NCBI GenBank assembly: GCA_039589315.1
Contig: JBDHHQ010000054.1
Coordinates: forward strand, 1 to 54,514
Direction of reading: 5' to 3'
DNA length: 54,514 nucleotides
Source of the DNA: Gemmatimonadota bacterium
GTDB lineage: Bacteria > Gemmatimonadota > Gemmatimonadetes > Longimicrobiales > Gaopeijiaceae
The notes below the pieces were generated by a model. The model saw only the letters and a program-made list of their open reading frames with translations. It was not told where the DNA came from and did no database searches. Position 1 is the stretch's first letter; each line of letters opens with the position of its first letter. The position numbers were made by a program, and so were the translations under genes. Positions 30,152-45,244 of the stretch are shown here, piece after piece.

Positions 30152-30170
<19 letters not shown>

Positions 30171-31516
30171 TAGAGTTGTGCCAGAGCACGGATCCCGGCA
30201 TCGAAGTTGTCGGCGGGGAACCACTCGTCGGGTGCGTGCATGTTGGCGCCAGGGAGCGCGAACCCGACCAGAAGGGCGGGGGCGTCGAGCAGCCGCTCGA
30301 AGTCCACCACGATGGGAATCGAGCCGCCCTCGCCCACCAGTACCGGCTCCGCGTCGAAGGCCTGCCGAAGAGCGCGGCTGGCCGCGGCGACGATCTCGCC
30401 TCCGAGCTGCGCCCTCCACGGCTTCCCGCCGTGCAGGCGCTCTACCCTGACGGAAACGCCCGGCGGGGCCACCTCCCGGACATGTTCTTCAAAGAGCTTC
30501 TCGATGTGACCGGGGTCTTGCTCCGGCACCAGGCGGAAGCTGACCTTGGCCATGGCATGGCTTGGCAGCACGGTCTTGGCGCCCTCGCCGGTGTACCCGG
30601 AGAGGATCCCGCAGATGTCGCAGGTCGGTCGGATCCAGAGACGCTCCAGCGCCGAGAACCCGATCTCACCGCCCAGCTCAGGTGCGCCCACTTCGCTCCG
30701 GAAGTCTTCCTCGTCGAACGGCAGCTCCCGAATCCGTGCCCGCGTCTCCTGGTCCCAGGCCACGACCTCGTCGTAGAACCCCGGGATGGCCACAACCCCG
30801 GCTTCGTCGTGAAGCGAGGCGAGGATCTGGGCCAGGGCGTTCGCCGGGTTCACGACCGCGCCTCCGTAGGCTCCCGAATGGAGGTCTCGGGACGGGCCCG
30901 CCACGTGCAGCTCCAGGTAGGCCAGCCCCCGCAGCGAAAAGAGCAGCGACGGCTGGCCGGGAGCGAACATCGTGGAGTCGGAGATGACGACGGCGTCGCA
31001 CGCCAGCCGCTCGCGGTGGGCCTCCAGGAAGGGCAGAAGATTCGGGGAGCCGATCTCCTCCTCTCCCTCGGCAAGGACGACCACGTTGACCGGAAGCCCT
31101 CCATTGCCCTTCAGATGGGCCTCGATGGCCTTCACGTGCATGAAGAGCTGGCCCTTGTCGTCGGCGGACCCCCGAGCATAGATGCGTCCATCCCTGATCT
31201 CGGGCTCGAAGGGCGGAGAGGTCCACAGGTCCAGCGGCTCTACGGGCTGAACGTCGTAATGCCCATACACGAGTAGTGTCACCGCGTCAGGGCCTGCGCC
31301 CCGCCACTCGCCGAGGACGATGGGGTGTCGATCCGTCTCACAGATCTCGGCCTCGAGACCCGCTGCCGTGAGATGACGGGCAAACCACTCGGCGGCGGCC
31401 TGGGTGTCGCCGTCGTGCTCGGAGCGAGCGCTCACCGAGGGGATTCTGAGAAACTCGAAGAGCTCGGCGTGAAACCTGGAAAGCTCGCTCTCGATGTACG
31501 ATTGGGGGTCAGGCAC
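30152..31516 (-). CDS. M20/M25/M40 family dipeptidase
   Basis: YGHYDVQP, ARGSADDKGQ, EGEEE, DLHSG, GGSIP, HAPDE. AAGGAGG RBS before the GTG start. Confidence 0.95.
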
Positions 31517-31670
31517 CTCTCCCTCCTTGCCAGAACGGTTGTCACGGGCCTGCGAGGCCGCGCTGAATCTATCCTCGTTTCCGGAGTTCGCGAGCCACGA
31601 GGGAAGGCCGGCGGGGGGACGGTGGCAGGACGCCGAACGCCCAGGCCCAGTGGCGACGTCGGCGGCGGCG

Positions 31671-31696
31671 GGAAACGATTCACGGAGACGAGCGTA
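31671..31696 (+). promoter_or_regulatory. ECF (SigW-like) promoter
   Basis: GGAAAC-N16-CGTA, close to the B. subtilis sigmaW consensus TGAAAC-N16-CGTA. Confidence 0.55.
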
Positions 31697-31704
31697 GGTA
31701 CCAA

Positions 31705-32030
31705 CGTGACTGCCCTCGTGGGAGTGAATGGGCAGGCAACCTGGCCCCAGAACTAAGGGGCGGCGAACCCGGCCTCCCTGGACCGAGGGGACTGGTAGGC
31801 CCGGCCTCCCGGCTGGAGGCGGCAGGGAACCCTGCAACCGTCCCGGGAGTTAAGTCGTCAAATCGCGTGAGGAGGGTCAGCCTGGCCCGCCTCGGGTGGG
31901 TAGCAGGACGCGACGTCCGGCGCGTAATCCGGACGGGAGAGGCTGGTCACCTCTCTTTCAGGAACCCACGGTGTGCCTCCGTGGGATGGGATAGGCGGCG
32001 GTCTTTCGGGGCCGTCGTCTTTCCGTTTTG
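31705..32030 (+). ncRNA. Candidate ~325-nt structured non-coding RNA of unrecognised family
   Basis: At least nine hairpins or long-range helices between an ECF-type promoter and a plus-strand intrinsic terminator. Both flanking genes are on the minus strand and no credible ORF is present. Confidence 0.65.
31994..32029 (+). terminator. Intrinsic terminator
   Basis: GGCGGCGGTC-t(ttcg)g-GGCCGTCGTC followed by TTTCCGTTTT. No U-tail in the opposite direction. Confidence 0.75.
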
Positions 32031-32050
32031 GGTGTACCCGCGAGTCGAGG

Positions 32051-32329
32051 TTAGGCGAAGCCCTTCACGCCCCAGCGATAGACCCAGGTGAGAATCAGCG
32101 CCAGGACCACGGCTCCACCCATGCCTCCCGCGCTGATGGCCAGCGGCTCCCAGAAGTGGAAGATCCCCACGCCCAGCATCCCGCCGATGACGGCCGAAAA
32201 CGCACCCAGCACCATCAGCAGCACACTGTGTCCCGGGGTCTCCTGGTCGAGCTTGACGATCACCCTCATGGAGAGGCCGATGACCGCGCCCAGCACGATC
32301 CAGATGCCCACACCGATCCAGTTTTCCAT
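32051..32329 (-). CDS. GlsB/YeaQ/YmgE-like small stress membrane protein
   Basis: 92 aa with three Gly-rich TM segments: WIVLGAVIG...LGAFSAVIGGMLG...GGAVVL. Confidence 0.75.
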   Translation of the reverse strand: MENWIGVGIWIVLGAVIGLSMRVIVKLDQETPGHSVLLMVLGAFSAVIGGMLGVGIFHFWEPLAISAGGMGGAVVLALILTWVYRWGVKGFA

Positions 32330-32460
32330 GACTGCAGCCCGCTGGCGTTCTCAGGTTCGGAGAAGGCGAGAATCTACCCGTTCAGGGGGGGGAATGCCAG
32401 TGGAAACGCGCCTCCGCGCCGGTTGCCGTACGCTCTCACCGGGGCTAGCGTTCGGCCACT

Positions 32461-32955
32461 GTGAGAGACCACGTGATCGACCTTCGGGAATACCTGAAGG
32501 CGAAGAAAGAGGATCGCCGCGGCACCTTCTCGATCTGGGGGGGCGAGGGCGAGCGATCCCGGTTCGCTCTCCCCATGTGGCGAGCCATCTACCTCGCCGG
32601 TGGAGACTGGGGAGCCCTGCTGTGGGGGAGGGATGAGCACGTACCCCACAAGCTCACGCCCTTCTTCGTCCTGGATCTCAAGTCGGAGCCGGCCCGCACC
32701 GCGGTGGATGCCGACCTCGCGGAAGGCCTGTGGAGAGGAGAAGCGCCTCAACTCATCGAGCACGCCAGCGGACCCGTGTTGGTGTTGCTGGGCCAGCGGG
32801 ATGGGCGGCGCTGGTTTCTGGCCATCGCAGGAGACGGTCGCGACCCGCACCTCGAGCCCCACATTCGTGATGATCTGCTGTTCCTGGCGGGGGAGTGTGC
32901 CGGCCTGCTGTTTCACCGCGACCTGGCGGGTAACGCCGACGCTCCCGAGAGCTGA
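32461..32955 (+). CDS. Hypothetical protein
   Basis: 164-aa ORF with good codon bias (VIDLREYL...FALPMWRAIYL...LFLAGECAGLL). Confidence 0.75.
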   Translation: MRDHVIDLREYLKAKKEDRRGTFSIWGGEGERSRFALPMWRAIYLAGGDWGALLWGRDEHVPHKLTPFFVLDLKSEPARTAVDADLAEGLWRGEAPQLIEHASGPVLVLLGQRDGRRWFLAIAGDGRDPHLEPHIRDDLLFLAGECAGLLFHRDLAGNADAPES

Positions 32956-32973: not shown

Positions 32974-33612
32974 TCAGTCGCGACCCATCTTCCGCTTCAG
33001 CTCGTCGAGGCGGGTGTCGATGTCCACTGCCTCTTCTGCGTCGTCCCGCTCCAGCTCTCGCCAGGTCTCCTCGCTGGCGCTGGCCGCGTCGTCGTCGCCC
33101 TGGATGCGCTCGGCCATCCGGTCCAGCTCGTCGAAGAGGTCGTTGGCACCCTGAATCGTGTTACGGGCACTGGCGCGCCCCGCCGTGGCGGAGAGGGCAT
33201 CCCGGTCCTTCTGGGCCTGCTTGATCTTCTCCACCATCTCGGCGACCTCGCCTTGCCGTAGGTCCAGCTCCTCCTTGAGGGCGTGGGCCTTGGCCTCGAG
33301 GACCTCCCGCTTGCGATCGTGCTTCTCGGCGAACTCGGCGGCCACGTCGGCCGTCTCCTCATCGCCGATCTTCCGGGCCATCTTCTCGCGGCGCCGACAC
33401 GTTGCGGCGTCCCGAGCCTCCCGCTTGCCAACCTCGAGCGTGAGCTCCACGTCTCTCTCGAGCTGCCGGACTCGTGCCTGGGCGTCGGCAGCCTCGTTCT
33501 TCATACCCACGAGGAGCCGATCCACGGCCAGAGGCACGTCGTCCCGGTTCAGCTCTTCCTTGAAGTTGTCGACGGCCTCCCGGAAGGCGTCACGGAGCTT
33601 CTCGAACATCAT
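32974..33612 (-). CDS. PspA/IM30-like coiled-coil protein
   Basis: MFEKLRDAF N-terminus, long charged helix, FDELDRMAERI, and C-terminal IDTRLDELKRKMG. Confidence 0.78.
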   Translation of the reverse strand: MMFEKLRDAFREAVDNFKEELNRDDVPLAVDRLLVGMKNEAADAQARVRQLERDVELTLEVGKREARDAATCRRREKMARKIGDEETADVAAEFAEKHDRKREVLEAKAHALKEELDLRQGEVAEMVEKIKQAQKDRDALSATAGRASARNTIQGANDLFDELDRMAERIQGDDDAASASEETWRELERDDAEEAVDIDTRLDELKRKMGRD

Positions 33613-33679
33613 GCAGGGTGGATGAGAGCTTGGGCAGATGGATCGGGGTGCTCTGCAAGGTAGCACCGGAGCGTGCGCC

Positions 33680-33716
33680 GAAACAGAAGCCCGGACCGGC
33701 TTCAGCCGGTCCGGGC
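33680..33716 (-). terminator. Intrinsic terminator of the ECF sigma gene
   Basis: Perfect 12-bp stem GCCCGGACCGGC/GCCGGTCCGGGC followed on the minus strand by TTCTGTTTC. Confidence 0.8.
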
Positions 33717-33739
33717 CGTGCCTCGCAGAGCTCGGCGGA

Positions 33740-34354
33740 TCAGTTCAAGAACGGCTCGATCCGCTGAGCGAAGGAGTTTCTCGCCCGGTGCAGACGGCTC
33801 TTCACCGTGCCGAGGTTCACGCCGGTGATCTCCGCGATCTCCTCGTAGCTCTTGCCCTCGAGCTCTCTGAGCCGAAACACGAGCTGGTGGTGCTCCGGCA
33901 GCTTGCTCACGGTGTCCTCGACGAGCCGTTGGAGATAGCGCTTCCGATACAGGTCGTCCGGCCGCATGGTGAAGTCCTCGAACTGGAGCGGGCGGTGATC
34001 GTCGTCCCAGTTGTTGGTGAGGCGCTGGAACAGGACCAACGGGCTGCGGGAGCGATTCCTCAACTCGTTCTTCGAGAGGTTGCTGGCGATCGTGTAGACC
34101 CACGTCGAGAACTTCTTCGTCGTGTCGAACCGGTGCAGGTGGCGCGTGACCCGGATGAAGGCCTCTTGCACGAGATCCTGCGCACGGTCGGAGTCTCCCG
34201 TCTTGCGGGTGATGAAGTACACCAGCCGATCGCGGTACCGGTTGTACAGCTCGTGGAAGGCCCCCGGGCGCTCCTCGAGGTGGGCGGTAACCAGCTCCTC
34301 GTCGGTGAGAGCCTCGACGGGAGGCTGCTCGATGCAGGTGGTCTCGTTCGTCAC
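33740..34354 (-). CDS. ECF RNA polymerase sigma factor (SigW/RpoE-like)
   Basis: DEELV, AQDLVQEAF, KFSTWVYTIA.N, SYEEIAEI.GV.LGTVKSRLHRAR. Confidence 0.95.
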   Translation of the reverse strand: MTNETTCIEQPPVEALTDEELVTAHLEERPGAFHELYNRYRDRLVYFITRKTGDSDRAQDLVQEAFIRVTRHLHRFDTTKKFSTWVYTIASNLSKNELRNRSRSPLVLFQRLTNNWDDDHRPLQFEDFTMRPDDLYRKRYLQRLVEDTVSKLPEHHQLVFRLRELEGKSYEEIAEITGVNLGTVKSRLHRARNSFAQRIEPFLN

Positions 34355-41978: not shown

Positions 41979-43922
41979 CTAGGCCGGCCCCCCGGCCGTG
42001 GCGTGCTCCGCCGGCTCGGGCTGAGCGACCTCCGGAGTGGCGCTGCCCGTGCCCGGCGCAGCCCCGTCGGAGAAGTCCAGCACGCCCGCCTCCAGCCATC
42101 CATAGCGACCCTCGAGCACGCGCTTGGCGGTCCTGTACGTGGCCACGTCGTCGTTGGCAAAGATGGTGCGGAAGTTCTGCCGAATGCGCCTTCGGGCGTG
42201 GCGCGCGAACAGGTCGGCCAGCTCCACCGGCGTCAAGTCTGCCGGGTTCTCTCGCCTCAACATCTGCGCCCGCACGCACGCCGCGGTCAGGACGAACAGG
42301 TCGGCGCCGATGTCCACGATCCGCCCCAGAACCGCCTGACGCCGTTCCAGCCCGGCGCCGAAACGGATCATCGCGTAGAACAGGGCGCGGGCCAGCTTCC
42401 GGGACATCCGGTCGGCGAATCGAAGGTGTCCGGCCAGCGGGCCGAACTCCCCGTAGCGGGGCCACCGACCCCAGCCCAGCCACCGCGTCGGATACCACCA
42501 GGCGTAGTGCAGCCCGGCCTTCACCAGCCCAGAGAGCCGGGCATCCAAGGGAGCACGGGGGTCCACCAGGGCACCCGCAACGCTCAGGTGTGCATCCACC
42601 GCCTCCCTGGCGATGAACAACCGCATGATCTCGCTGGAACCCTCGAAGATCAGGTTGATCCGCATGTCGCGGAACGCCCGCTCGATGGGGTACGGGGTCT
42701 CGCCCCGGGCCCGGAGCGAGTCGGCCGTCTCGTACCCACGGCCGCCCCGCACCTGGAGCGCTTCGTCGATGGTGTCCCATCCGGTCTCGCTGTGCCACAG
42801 CTTGGCGATGGCGGCTTCCAGCCGGATATCGAACCTCTTCCGGTCCGCCATGATGGAGGTGAGCTCGACCACCGCCTCCATGGCGAACGTGTCGGCCGCC
42901 ATCTTGCCGATCTTCTGGGCGATGGCGTCGTGACGTCCGACCGGCGCGCCCCACTGAACACGCTGGGAGGCCCAGTCCCGGCACATGGCCAGCGCGCCCT
43001 TGGTGGCCGCGAGACAGAAGGCGGGCAGGGAGAGCCGCCCGGTGTTGAGAGTGATCAGCGCCAGCTTGAGGCCCTTCCCCTCACCCCAGAGGACGTTCTC
43101 CTTCGGCACGCGGACGTCCTTGAAGGTCACCACGCCGTTCGAGATGGCCTTCAGACCCATGAACTCGCACACGTGGTCGATCTCCACGCCCTCCCAGGCG
43201 GTCTCGACGATGAACGCCGTGATCGGCCGCTTGCCCTTCACGCCGTCGCGGGCGGGCGTGCGGGCCATGACCACCATGATCTCGGAGCGGGGGCCGTTGG
43301 TGCACCAGAGCTTCTCGCCGTTGAGGATCCAGGCGTCTCCGTCCTCCGTGAGCTCGGCGGTCGTCGACATGTTGGCCGGGTCCGACCCTACCTCCGGCTC
43401 GGTGAGGGCGAAGGCGGAGATGGCGCCCGCGGCCAAACGCGGCAAGTAGGCCCGCTTCTGCTCTTCGGTGCCGAAGTAGACGAGGGGCTGGGGCACACCG
43501 ATGGACTGATGGGCGGAGAGGAACGCGCCGGAGGCCGAGCAGCGGCTCGACACGATCATGAGCGCACGGTTGTAGCTGAGCTGGGAGAGACCCAGACCGC
43601 CGTACTCGCGGGGGATCTTGATGCCGAAGGCGCCCAACTCGGCGAGCCCGTCCAGGACCTCCTGAGGCACCCAACCGTTCCGGTCGTTGGCGTCTCCGTC
43701 CACGTTCTGCTCGACGAACGCCTCGAGCCGCGTCAGGAATCCCTGGGCGCGCTGCTGCTCCTCCGGGTCCGGCGCGGGGTGCGGATGGATCAGGTCGAGC
43801 GAGAGCCGGCCGTCCCAGATTCCGCGGGCGAAGCTCCGCTGAGACCACTCCGTCTCACGGGCCGCCTCAGCGACTTCACGGGACTCGAGCGCGGACGCGG
43901 GCTGGTTTCCGGGGTTCGCCAT
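41979..43922 (-). CDS. Acyl-CoA dehydrogenase (VLCAD/ACAD9-like)
   Basis: AFALTEPEVGSD, LNGEKLWCTNG, LNTGR, GGRGY, RINLIFEGSSEIM. Confidence 0.95.
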   Translation of the reverse strand: MANPGNQPASALESREVAEAARETEWSQRSFARGIWDGRLSLDLIHPHPAPDPEEQQRAQGFLTRLEAFVEQNVDGDANDRNGWVPQEVLDGLAELGAFGIKIPREYGGLGLSQLSYNRALMIVSSRCSASGAFLSAHQSIGVPQPLVYFGTEEQKRAYLPRLAAGAISAFALTEPEVGSDPANMSTTAELTEDGDAWILNGEKLWCTNGPRSEIMVVMARTPARDGVKGKRPITAFIVETAWEGVEIDHVCEFMGLKAISNGVVTFKDVRVPKENVLWGEGKGLKLALITLNTGRLSLPAFCLAATKGALAMCRDWASQRVQWGAPVGRHDAIAQKIGKMAADTFAMEAVVELTSIMADRKRFDIRLEAAIAKLWHSETGWDTIDEALQVRGGRGYETADSLRARGETPYPIERAFRDMRINLIFEGSSEIMRLFIAREAVDAHLSVAGALVDPRAPLDARLSGLVKAGLHYAWWYPTRWLGWGRWPRYGEFGPLAGHLRFADRMSRKLARALFYAMIRFGAGLERRQAVLGRIVDIGADLFVLTAACVRAQMLRRENPADLTPVELADLFARHARRRIRQNFRTIFANDDVATYRTAKRVLEGRYGWLEAGVLDFSDGAAPGTGSATPEVAQPEPAEHATAGGPA

Positions 43923-43957
43923 GATGTCTCTCCTTGTGCCAGAGCCCAGATTGGACT

Positions 43958-45244
43958 CTACCCGCCTCGTTCCGCAGGGTTGCGGCTCGGAGCGGCGGTC
44001 GCGGCGCCCTGGGAGACGGCCGACAGCTCAGGCTGGAAGAACCGTTCGATCTCGTCGGCCCGCGCTTCGGCGTCCGCCTCGCCGATCTCGATGAGGCGCG
44101 ACAGGTAATCCGGCTGGAAGAGGATGAGGCTGAGGGCGTCCGGGCTCCGTGTCTCCTTGGTGCCCAGTCCTCGCGTGAGGAACCGGAACGCCTTGGGCAG
44201 CTGGGGCTCGTACTCGTTGGCCAGGACCCCCAGATCCACCGAGGGACGGAGCACCAGCAGATCCACGTGCCGGAGGCCGTCTCGCTGATCGTTGGGCAGC
44301 CGGTCCAGCAATCGGTTCAGCCGTTCGAGGCGGTACGCGTCCTGATCCAGCAGGTCCAGGAAGACCGAGTTCATGAGGACTCCGGCGACCTGGGCGGGCG
44401 GCGGGTAGCCCGCCACGAGGGGCCGAGCCGCCTCGCTGTGGCTGCGGACGTACCGCGTCGAGATCGCCAGGATCCGTCGGGCGCCGAGGTGCAGGGCCGG
44501 CGAGAGCGGCGCGGCCAGTCGGATGCCGCCGTCTCCGTACCACTTGTCGCCGATCTTGACGGCAGGGAAGAACAGCGGCAGCGCGGCCGACGCCATGACA
44601 TGGTCGATGGTCAGCGTCGTCTTCACGGAGCGGCGCAGCGGCCGCTCCCACTCCCGGATGTCATCGCCCTGGACCCAGGTGATGGACTGACCCGTGCTGT
44701 AGCTCGAGGTGCTCAACGCCACGGCCTTGAGCCGGCCCCGGGCCAGGCGGTAGTTGACGCCGGTGAGCTCACCATCGACGGAGTGGAGCGTTTCTCGCAG
44801 GAAGCTGCGTAGCGGGCTCGTGTCCACGAAACCCTTGACCCGGGGCGGTCCTCCGTGGCCTCCGGACGCGAGCTGGCCGAGCCACCGGACGGCGTTCCAG
44901 CCCAGGGACCCGGCATCCACGCGGAACACGTCCCCTACGGTGAGGTTCGACCAGAGGCCGGCGAGCTCTTCCACCATCTGCTGGAAGGTCCCATGGTGGG
45001 ACGCCAGCAGAGCGGCGTTGATGGCGCCAGCGGAGACCCCCGTCACGATGGGGATCTCGAGGTCGGGGAGACGCCTGGCTATGCACCGCAGGAAACCGAT
45101 CTGATACGCGGCTCGGGCGCCGCCCCCAGTCATGACCAGCCCCAGGTCGGGCACGCCCTTCGGAAAGGCTTCCGCCGCGCTACCTGCTTCGTCTGTCGGC
45201 TCCGCGTGCATCTCGGCCGTGTTGATGAGGGGGGTCAACGCCAT
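43958..45244 (-). CDS. Patatin-like phospholipase
   Basis: GGGARAAY, GVSAG nucleophile elbow, ASAALP.FFP, DGG. Confidence 0.93.
   Translation of the reverse strand: MALTPLINTAEMHAEPTDEAGSAAEAFPKGVPDLGLVMTGGGARAAYQIGFLRCIARRLPDLEIPIVTGVSAGAINAALLASHHGTFQQMVEELAGLWSNLTVGDVFRVDAGSLGWNAVRWLGQLASGGHGGPPRVKGFVDTSPLRSFLRETLHSVDGELTGVNYRLARGRLKAVALSTSSYSTGQSITWVQGDDIREWERPLRRSVKTTLTIDHVMASAALPLFFPAVKIGDKWYGDGGIRLAAPLSPALHLGARRILAISTRYVRSHSEAARPLVAGYPPPAQVAGVLMNSVFLDLLDQDAYRLERLNRLLDRLPNDQRDGLRHVDLLVLRPSVDLGVLANEYEPQLPKAFRFLTRGLGTKETRSPDALSLILFQPDYLSRLIEIGEADAEARADEIERFFQPELSAVSQGAATAAPSRNPAERGG

Follow-up and report, generated by a model that had tools for sequence, protein, structure and literature searches.

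A conserved structured non-coding RNA element behind two tandem ECF-type promoter motifs in Gemmatimonadota

Genomic context of the element

The window (the whole 54,514-nt stretch of Gemmatimonadota DNA analysed here) carries an M20 dipeptidase gene at 30152..31516 on the minus strand (PF01546/PF07687; NF006053 dipeptidase over cut-off) and, at 32051..32329 on the same strand, a gene for a 92-aa GlsB/YeaQ/YmgE-like membrane protein. The intergenic gap between them holds a plus-strand RNA unit, divergent from the M20 gene and convergent with the small gene. The small protein gave 0 matches over cut-off in a Pfam/NCBIfam search; its name is the automatic one of an Atlas cluster (score 0.97), and it is present in 50 of 50 sampled genomes of the family. 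In the first-pass annotation the gap had been read as one highly structured RNA of about 325 nt, opening with an ECF-type promoter and closing with its own terminator. The plus-strand placement between two minus-strand genes agrees with the coordinates, and the promoter letters agree with the sequence. Compared across relatives, the gap is best described as a conserved, structured, predicted non-coding RNA element of ~160 nt, not 325, which is uncatalogued and lies behind two tandem ECF-type promoter motifs.

On either side of the unit, GAATCTA at 31565-31571 and 32372-32378 reads on the minus strand as TAGATT, a -10-like element upstream of the M20 and small membrane-protein genes that is found in relatives too; in compact loci a -10-like element of the minus strand overlaps the predicted start site of the RNA. 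Further along, the 32974-34354 region (minus strand) encodes a coiled-coil protein, which we take to be PspA/IM30-like, beside an RpoE-like ECF sigma factor. The coiled-coil protein has no Pfam PspA match, no anti-sigma gene adjoins, and the sigma factor has a close paralogue on contig C56.

Two tandem ECF-type promoter motifs

The upstream motif, P1 (31671..31696, plus strand), consists of GGAAAC at 31671-31676, a 16-nt spacer and CGTA at 31693-31696; it is SigW-like and a predicted promoter. The internal motif, P2 (31834..31862, plus strand), reads GCAACC-N16-CGTCAAA, with GCAACC-N16-CGTC at 31834-31859. It is the better conserved of the two and had been overlooked in the 325-nt unit. Among 46 family copies, the strict P1 motif occurs in 29 and the strict P2 motif, G(C/A)AAC-N17-CGTC, in 30; either is present in 37 and both in 22, while the opposite strand has none (0/46). 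Across the 22 copies holding both, P1 and P2 lie 41-162 nt apart, the source genome having the longest distance.

Both motifs recur at a fixed spacing elsewhere. In the non-coding DNA of the source genome, as defined by our own gene calls (5225 genes), GAAAC-N17-CGTA is found at 31 sites (other spacings give 1-9) and GCAAC-N17-CGTC at 30 (other spacings, 4-22), the latter being the weaker local signal. Over 150 genomes of the family, GCAACC-N16-CGTCAWA gives 63 matches as opposed to 7 for reversed-pattern controls; the P2 of the element is its single match in the source genome. Behind 40 other P2-type promoters no paralogue of the RNA was found. Pfam assignments for 20 genes downstream of the motifs include an M48 protease, an M50B peptidase, a trypsin-PDZ (DegP-like) protease, ExbB/TolQ, a rhomboid, a zinc-finger anti-sigma factor, two TonB-receptor-like proteins and several others, with five genes lacking a family. 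PadR regulators and ABC permeases, labelled by reading the sequences, are also frequent behind P1/P2-type motifs. The zinc-finger anti-sigma gene lies downstream of a sigma factor whose best matches are SigW, below the equivalog cut-off. In Bacillus, a CGTA -10 element is reported for SigW promoters and CGTC for those of SigM/X/V (PMC5758882). Neither motif occurs within 400 nt upstream of any sigma gene, so the cognate factors of P1 and P2 are assigned by inference only. The two promoter classes stand before envelope-stress genes, and we infer that their sigma factors are envelope-stress factors.

The wider set of candidate regulons comprises ~30 loci for GAAAC-N17-CGTA and ~15 for GCAAC-N17-CGTC (for example C30:44552, C30:36144, C35:32390 and C3:20667), among which PadR regulators, ABC permeases and envelope proteases are common. 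Tandem arrangements of both motifs are seen at other genes too (C109:5120/5175 and C15:117366/117381). At C30:43910-45610 (L123), a SigW-like sigma gene (43910-44500) precedes a second gene, which encodes two zinc-finger anti-sigma motifs; a P1-type promoter belonging to this second gene lies between them.

Architecture and conservation of the RNA core

The predicted small RNA of ~160 nt spans 31867..32029 on the plus strand, as delimited by covariance models R1/R2, with a predicted start 6-8 nt past the -10 element. It opens with a variable 5' domain (31869..31900), formed in this clade by a specific hairpin and GGGUGGG and in many relatives by successive GG(A)YGG repeats. The conserved core, 31910-32029, follows in the order hairpin A, hairpin B, variable linker, hairpin C and terminator. 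Hairpin A (31910..31935 including its pseudoknot strand) pairs 31914-31920 with 31929-31935. Hairpin B (31936..31956) exposes a near-invariant 7-nt loop, CUGGUCA at 31943-31949, which contains a YUNR U-turn motif and the self-complementary UGGUCA; this most conserved part of the element was missing from the first-pass annotation. Hairpin C (31965..31985) carries the loop UGUGCCU at 31972-31978, whose variants tend towards 4-nt palindromes. The intrinsic terminator (31993..32029) has a UUCG loop on a hairpin at 31993-32020 and a U-rich, imperfect tail. It is the sole terminator-like site in 31300-32500; shuffled sequences contain 0.8 +/- 1.0 such sites, so that the terminator alone is not above chance.

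The stems are retained through compensatory change. In an alignment that fits 35 copies to the model, 25 of the 35 pairs show two-sided changes and 94.4% of cells are paired, against 42-58% when the alignment is slid. Seven copies outside the model, aligned by MAFFT, have 112 of 112 cells paired in hairpins A and B and the pseudoknot, with two-sided changes in 9 of 16 pairs. By stem, such changes affect 4/6 pairs of hairpin A in the fitted alignment and 3/6 in the seven new copies, 7/8 and 6/7 pairs of hairpin B, and 6/6 pairs of hairpin C (fitted alignment). The loop of hairpin B was identified through its GGUC core, a placement that matches the model alignment. It reads CTGGTCA in 32 copies, TTGGTCA in 12, and TTGGTCG and CCGGTCA in one each, so YUGGUCA is kept in 44 of 46. 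Directly 5' of hairpin A, GCG at 31910-31912 complements the CGC that opens its loop (31921-31923), the geometry of an H-type pseudoknot. These pairs are retained in 27-29 of 29-30 aligned rows and the motif in 35 of 46 copies; because a single sequence is compensatory, the pseudoknot is graded probable only. No reading frame for a small protein is conserved across the family copies.

The 5' domain is more loosely kept. Among 35 such segments, GGGTGG occurs in 21 and GGATGGG in 16, and four close GG tracts in 21, compared with 7.8 in shuffles. A G-quadruplex is no more than a lead, the four-tract pattern being missing from 14 of the 35 and from the source copy, which has two tracts only. The domain is missing altogether in copies L092, L159 and L084, and in L092 and L159 the promoter stands directly before hairpin B. 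Together with copies L090, L063 and L102, which sit away from the usual locus, these two abutting promoters define the minimal unit as hairpins B and C with the terminator. An A-run on the 5' side of the terminator in 14 of 46 copies suggests that in those copies it may work in both directions.

Two clades carry additions of their own. In L073, L074, L076, L078, L080 and L173, a putative extra hairpin with a GUAA-type loop, preceded by TGTAAT, stands before the pseudoknot. In L093 and L095-L098, a 5' GA(A/G)GUGG complements CCACUUC of the linker between hairpins B and C over 7-9 nt and may form a long-range helix peculiar to this clade.

The region between the two promoters

The first 160 nt of the RNA as originally proposed are the gap between the two tandem promoters. 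This spacer (31703..31833, plus strand) is not conserved and folds at chance level; it would form the 5' extension of a possible ~325-nt isoform. In G001, a genome of the same genus, it has diverged and is 36 nt shorter, the missing block adjoining an 11-nt direct repeat at 31768/31800. The stems first proposed are present in the sequence (31707-31715/31730-31738, 31914-31920/31929-31935 and 31965-31971/31979-31985), but those of the 5' part are lost in G001. The long-range pairings GGCGA/TCGTC and CCCGG/CCGGG are likewise absent even from this close relative, and neither GGTCAGCCT/AGGCTGGTC nor TCGCGT/ACGCGA is retained there. Conservation and covariation among relatives thus hold for the 3' ~120 nt (31910-32029) and fail for the first 160 nt.

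Folding energy leads to the same division. The 336-nt unit has a z-score of -1.50, with 10 of 100 shuffles folding as well, which does not bear out the description as highly structured; the 5' half (31703-31865) scores -0.26 and the 3' part -2.94. The latter value owes much to the terminator, the core without it reaching -0.36 in the source copy. Over 22 copies the core without terminator averages -1.05, no better than the P1-P2 spacers (mean -0.88); an upstream control gives -0.18. Since the 5' half is at chance and the 3' half is largely terminator, a 325-nt highly structured RNA is unsupported by energy. The mild average structure of the spacers counts towards the earlier model, with no common fold evident, and P1 in 29 of 46 copies makes a long transcript plausible, so that a ~325-nt transcript from P1 may exist as a long isoform. 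A single ornate ~325-nt RNA of a new large class is nevertheless highly improbable: the spacer ranges from 41 to 162 nt and is of unrelated sequence in 229 of 231 pairs (BLAST finds likeness in 2), the P2 motif lies inside the proposed RNA, and several copies lack P1 or any spacer. What stands of the earlier proposal is a stand-alone, plus-strand, non-coding unit with an ECF-type promoter outside Rfam; its size and class do not.

Distribution of the element

By BLAST, matches appear in 5 of 36 genomes of the same family and in none of 24 from two other families, mainly to the 3' part. A covariance model built from 10 copies matched 38 of 150 family genomes, 30 with true copies and 8 with terminators only; most genomes of the family are therefore without the element. 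The 46 distinct copies combine model matches, pattern matches, named contigs and metagenome data, in which 7 of 22 loci with the small gene yielded a copy. Nine low-scoring model matches (L104-L112) were excluded as terminators, and L161, L149 and L150 as duplicates of L074, L067 and L056. Outside the family, R2 was run over 149 genomes of the class (115 of them outside), with 22 candidates scored per genome, and returned 8 matches of 28-35 bits, all plain terminators that lack loop B; at this limited sensitivity the element was not found outside the family. A deeper search of five complete non-carrier genomes reached best scores of 21-23 bits. A phylum-wide pattern search (0/401) was discarded as too strict, since it missed known carriers. 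Searches of phage and plasmid collections gave no match to the element.

In a quick M20 tree of 58 rows, carriers lie on deep branches and the starred branches force at least 4 gains or losses, a distribution that fits, without proving, old presence with repeated loss. Of 44 copies checked, 41 adjoin the M20 gene, the small membrane-protein gene or both. The other three (L090, L063 and L102) lie away from this locus and retain loop B, two of them with a near-consensus promoter. The RNA is absent beside the small gene in 24 of 30 loci and in 15 of 22 metagenome loci. In the 24 loci without RNA the M20 and small genes are 3-177 nt apart, and where the locus is compact, P2 directly adjoins the start of M20.

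Expression was looked for in public RNA data. Three RNA runs of one study matched at shares of 0.05-0.07. On the region they gave contigs of relatives, at depth 2-6, which span the core and run on past it into the small gene, so that DNA carry-over is possible.

Comparison with known RNA families

As had been anticipated, Rfam 15 contains no family for the element: there are 0 matches at gathering score in the whole window, and the best E-values of the region, 0.049-9.8, are those of chance. The loci of 14 relatives gave a single match, to the terminator (E 0.35). The Pxr sRNA (RF01812), also a small multi-hairpin RNA, overlaps 31926-32027 at 16.4 bits against a gathering score of 80 (E 6.5), a chance match driven by the terminator. 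Hallmarks of tmRNA, RNase P and SRP are lacking in the element, in line with the first reading; no tRNA or tmRNA is called there, and the tmRNA, RNase P motifs and SRP match of the genome all lie elsewhere. Presence in 30 of 150 genomes rather than in all also speaks against a housekeeping RNA (tmRNA, RNase P, SRP, 6S). RF00013 finds no 6S RNA in the source genome. The SRP RNA of this genome falls just under the gathering cut-off (C1:22948-23046), its second tmRNA call, of permuted type, is probably spurious, and one contig carries a 16-gene tRNA array. Searches of the literature on Gemmatimonadota and Longimicrobiales found no described small RNA.

Three other assignments were set aside. A CsrB/RsmZ-type titrating RNA does not suit conserved loops without GGA, and CsrA (PF02599) was not found in the source genome, which is 95% complete. 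Hairpin B presumably bears a likeness to the anti-Shine-Dalgarno 3' end of 16S rRNA, but as mimicry this fails: the stem covaries and its letters are not kept, and no ribosome-binding-site target is conserved. The 16S rRNA of the source genome is unassembled. What we take to be a T-box-like motif for tRNA 3' ends has neither a specifier stem nor a downstream gene.

The closest likeness is to the sigma-E-dependent MicA, RybB and MicL of E. coli, which are stand-alone small RNAs with a near-consensus ECF promoter and an intrinsic terminator. MicA and RybB use a 5' single-stranded seed, and MicL exists in a long and a short form with a common 3' end. The element shares with ECF-dependent sRNAs an ECF-type promoter (at motif level), an intrinsic terminator and the lack of a coding frame. 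It differs from the E. coli examples in having two different ECF promoter types in tandem and a hairpin loop as its conserved part, in showing no sequence likeness by Rfam, and in a source genome in which Hfq was not found. The RNA would work like an ECF-dependent sRNA yet belongs to no named family. In E. coli, the sRNA arm of the sigma-E response is reported to lie in a regulon that comprises envelope proteases together with genes of the outer membrane (PMC12249550). A precedent for loop-borne pairing comes from mycobacteria, hosts not known to have Hfq. There MrsI, an sRNA of ~100 nt, is reported to carry its 6-nt seed in an apical loop of 7 nt (PMC12101431); it differs in being under IdeR/iron control, not ECF control, and has no homology to the element.

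Proposed mode of action

We tentatively predict, with a confidence just short of even, that the element is an Hfq-independent, ECF-induced, trans-acting base-pairing sRNA of the envelope-stress response with a U-turn recognition loop. The two tandem ECF-sigma promoters would fire under envelope stress, P2 producing the ~160-nt form and P1, read by a SigW-like factor, an extended form that ends at the same 3' position. First contact with partner RNAs would fall to the U-turn loop that hairpin B exposes; this loop would nucleate pairing with UGACC-containing targets, leading to their repression, while the pseudoknot and the G-rich 5' domain would be accessory, providing stability or a second pairing site. 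YUNR loops are reported to adopt a U-turn that presents the following bases and speeds RNA-RNA pairing (PMC6562991). A near-invariant loop on a covarying stem is in favour of such a role; against it, YUNR is only four letters long and many loops match by chance. Hfq (PF17209) was not found on searching the source genome (95% complete). When duplexes were ranked over 5112 predicted starts, no coherent group of mRNA targets emerged, and the complement of loop B shows no enrichment in 5' regions, with 14 occurrences against an expected 13.1. In an extended-seed search of 35 carrier genomes, none of the 70 loci read, from a list longer by about a dozen sites, showed a ribosome-binding site common to orthologues; a 6-7-nt seed lies below the resolution of these searches.

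An invariant loop on a covarying stem suits protein recognition equally well as pairing, and the searches found no mRNA target; the element could then be a protein decoy. The bound part would be hairpin B, for example as a mimic of an anticodon arm or as the target of an RNA-binding protein, and the GG(A)YGG motifs repeated in the 5' domain would add further sites. We regard this as unlikely. CsrA, Hfq and Ro60/TROVE were not found in the source genome, each RNA offers one site, unlike titrating RNAs, and no RNA-binding gene adjoins. Loop B, Y-U-GGU-C-A, presumably resembles the anticodon loop of tRNA-Thr, but position 37 of anticodon loops is as a rule a purine and the would-be position 37 is here C. 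A role in cis is more doubtful still: the RNA would act as an opposite-strand insertion uncoupling the GlsB-like and M20 genes by antisense, promoter clash or two-way termination, or as a type I antitoxin to the small membrane protein. It would suit the location of 41 of 44 copies, the close spacing of the genes in RNA-free loci, the abutment of P2 on the M20 start in compact loci and the A-runs at 14 of the 46 terminators. An invariant loop would not be maintained by a partner in cis, and the three copies elsewhere retain it. The Bacillus type I antitoxins SR4, SR5 and RatA are likewise convergent to a small hydrophobic protein gene and carry a YUNR loop (PMC6562991). They differ in that the small gene here occurs throughout the family even where the RNA is missing, its coding region does not hold the complement of the conserved loop, and copies occur elsewhere. 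As the small gene is present in 50 of 50 genomes, mostly with no RNA beside it, a toxin dependent on this antitoxin is excluded.

Self-assembly stands between these two readings in probability and is improbable in our estimate. Loops B and C, perhaps also A, are self-complementary and would form symmetric kissing contacts after ECF induction, yielding dimers or larger RNA-only assemblies. UGGUCA pairs with itself through two central G-U pairs, the free C/U position of the loop is the unpaired one, and the variant TTGGTCG still self-pairs; a hairpin B dimer is calculated at -28.6 kcal/mol, against 2 x -10.1 for the monomers. Loop C switches among GUGC, GCGC, GUAC, AGCU, UCGA and CCGG. A Watson-Crick 4-nt palindrome is present in 11 of 15 distinct loops C without the common UGCC, against 5.3 in shuffles (p 0.0014), and the terminator control has 11 of 40 against 14.0 expected. 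This 15-loop subset was picked post hoc, however, and all 22 distinct loops give p 0.05 (Watson-Crick) or 0.11 (with G-U), other loop definitions 0.09-0.14 and the loop A test 0.15-0.19. The commonest loop C needs wobble pairs, palindromes are missing from 5 of the 22 loops, a 6-nt self-complementary run is found in ~11% of random 7-mers, and the loop-only duplexes are weak (UGGUCA -0.8, GUGC -0.6 kcal/mol). OLE, ROOL and GOLLD are several hundred nt long and conserved throughout, unlike the element, whose conserved core is only ~120 nt with three hairpins. The likeness to them lies in its candidate symmetric kissing loops, which switch between palindromes; such switching is reported to mark these contacts in OLE and GOLLD (PMC12286853). 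A stress-sigma-induced multi-arm RNA whose palindromic kissing loops lead to dimers, rings or condensates is given the same low probability. It would, if true, bring self-assembly of the OLE/ROOL/GOLLD type into an RNA of 100-160 nt.

Implications

The element is a well-bounded small RNA candidate of the Gemmatimonadota for which a covariance model is available. Its invariant loop allows sharp and cheap tests of pairing, protein binding and self-assembly, the last of these in vitro without culturing. Two ECF promoter classes are now defined for this Gemmatimonadota family. In conclusion, the ECF envelope-stress response of a phylum member in which no Hfq was detected likely includes an RNA arm.
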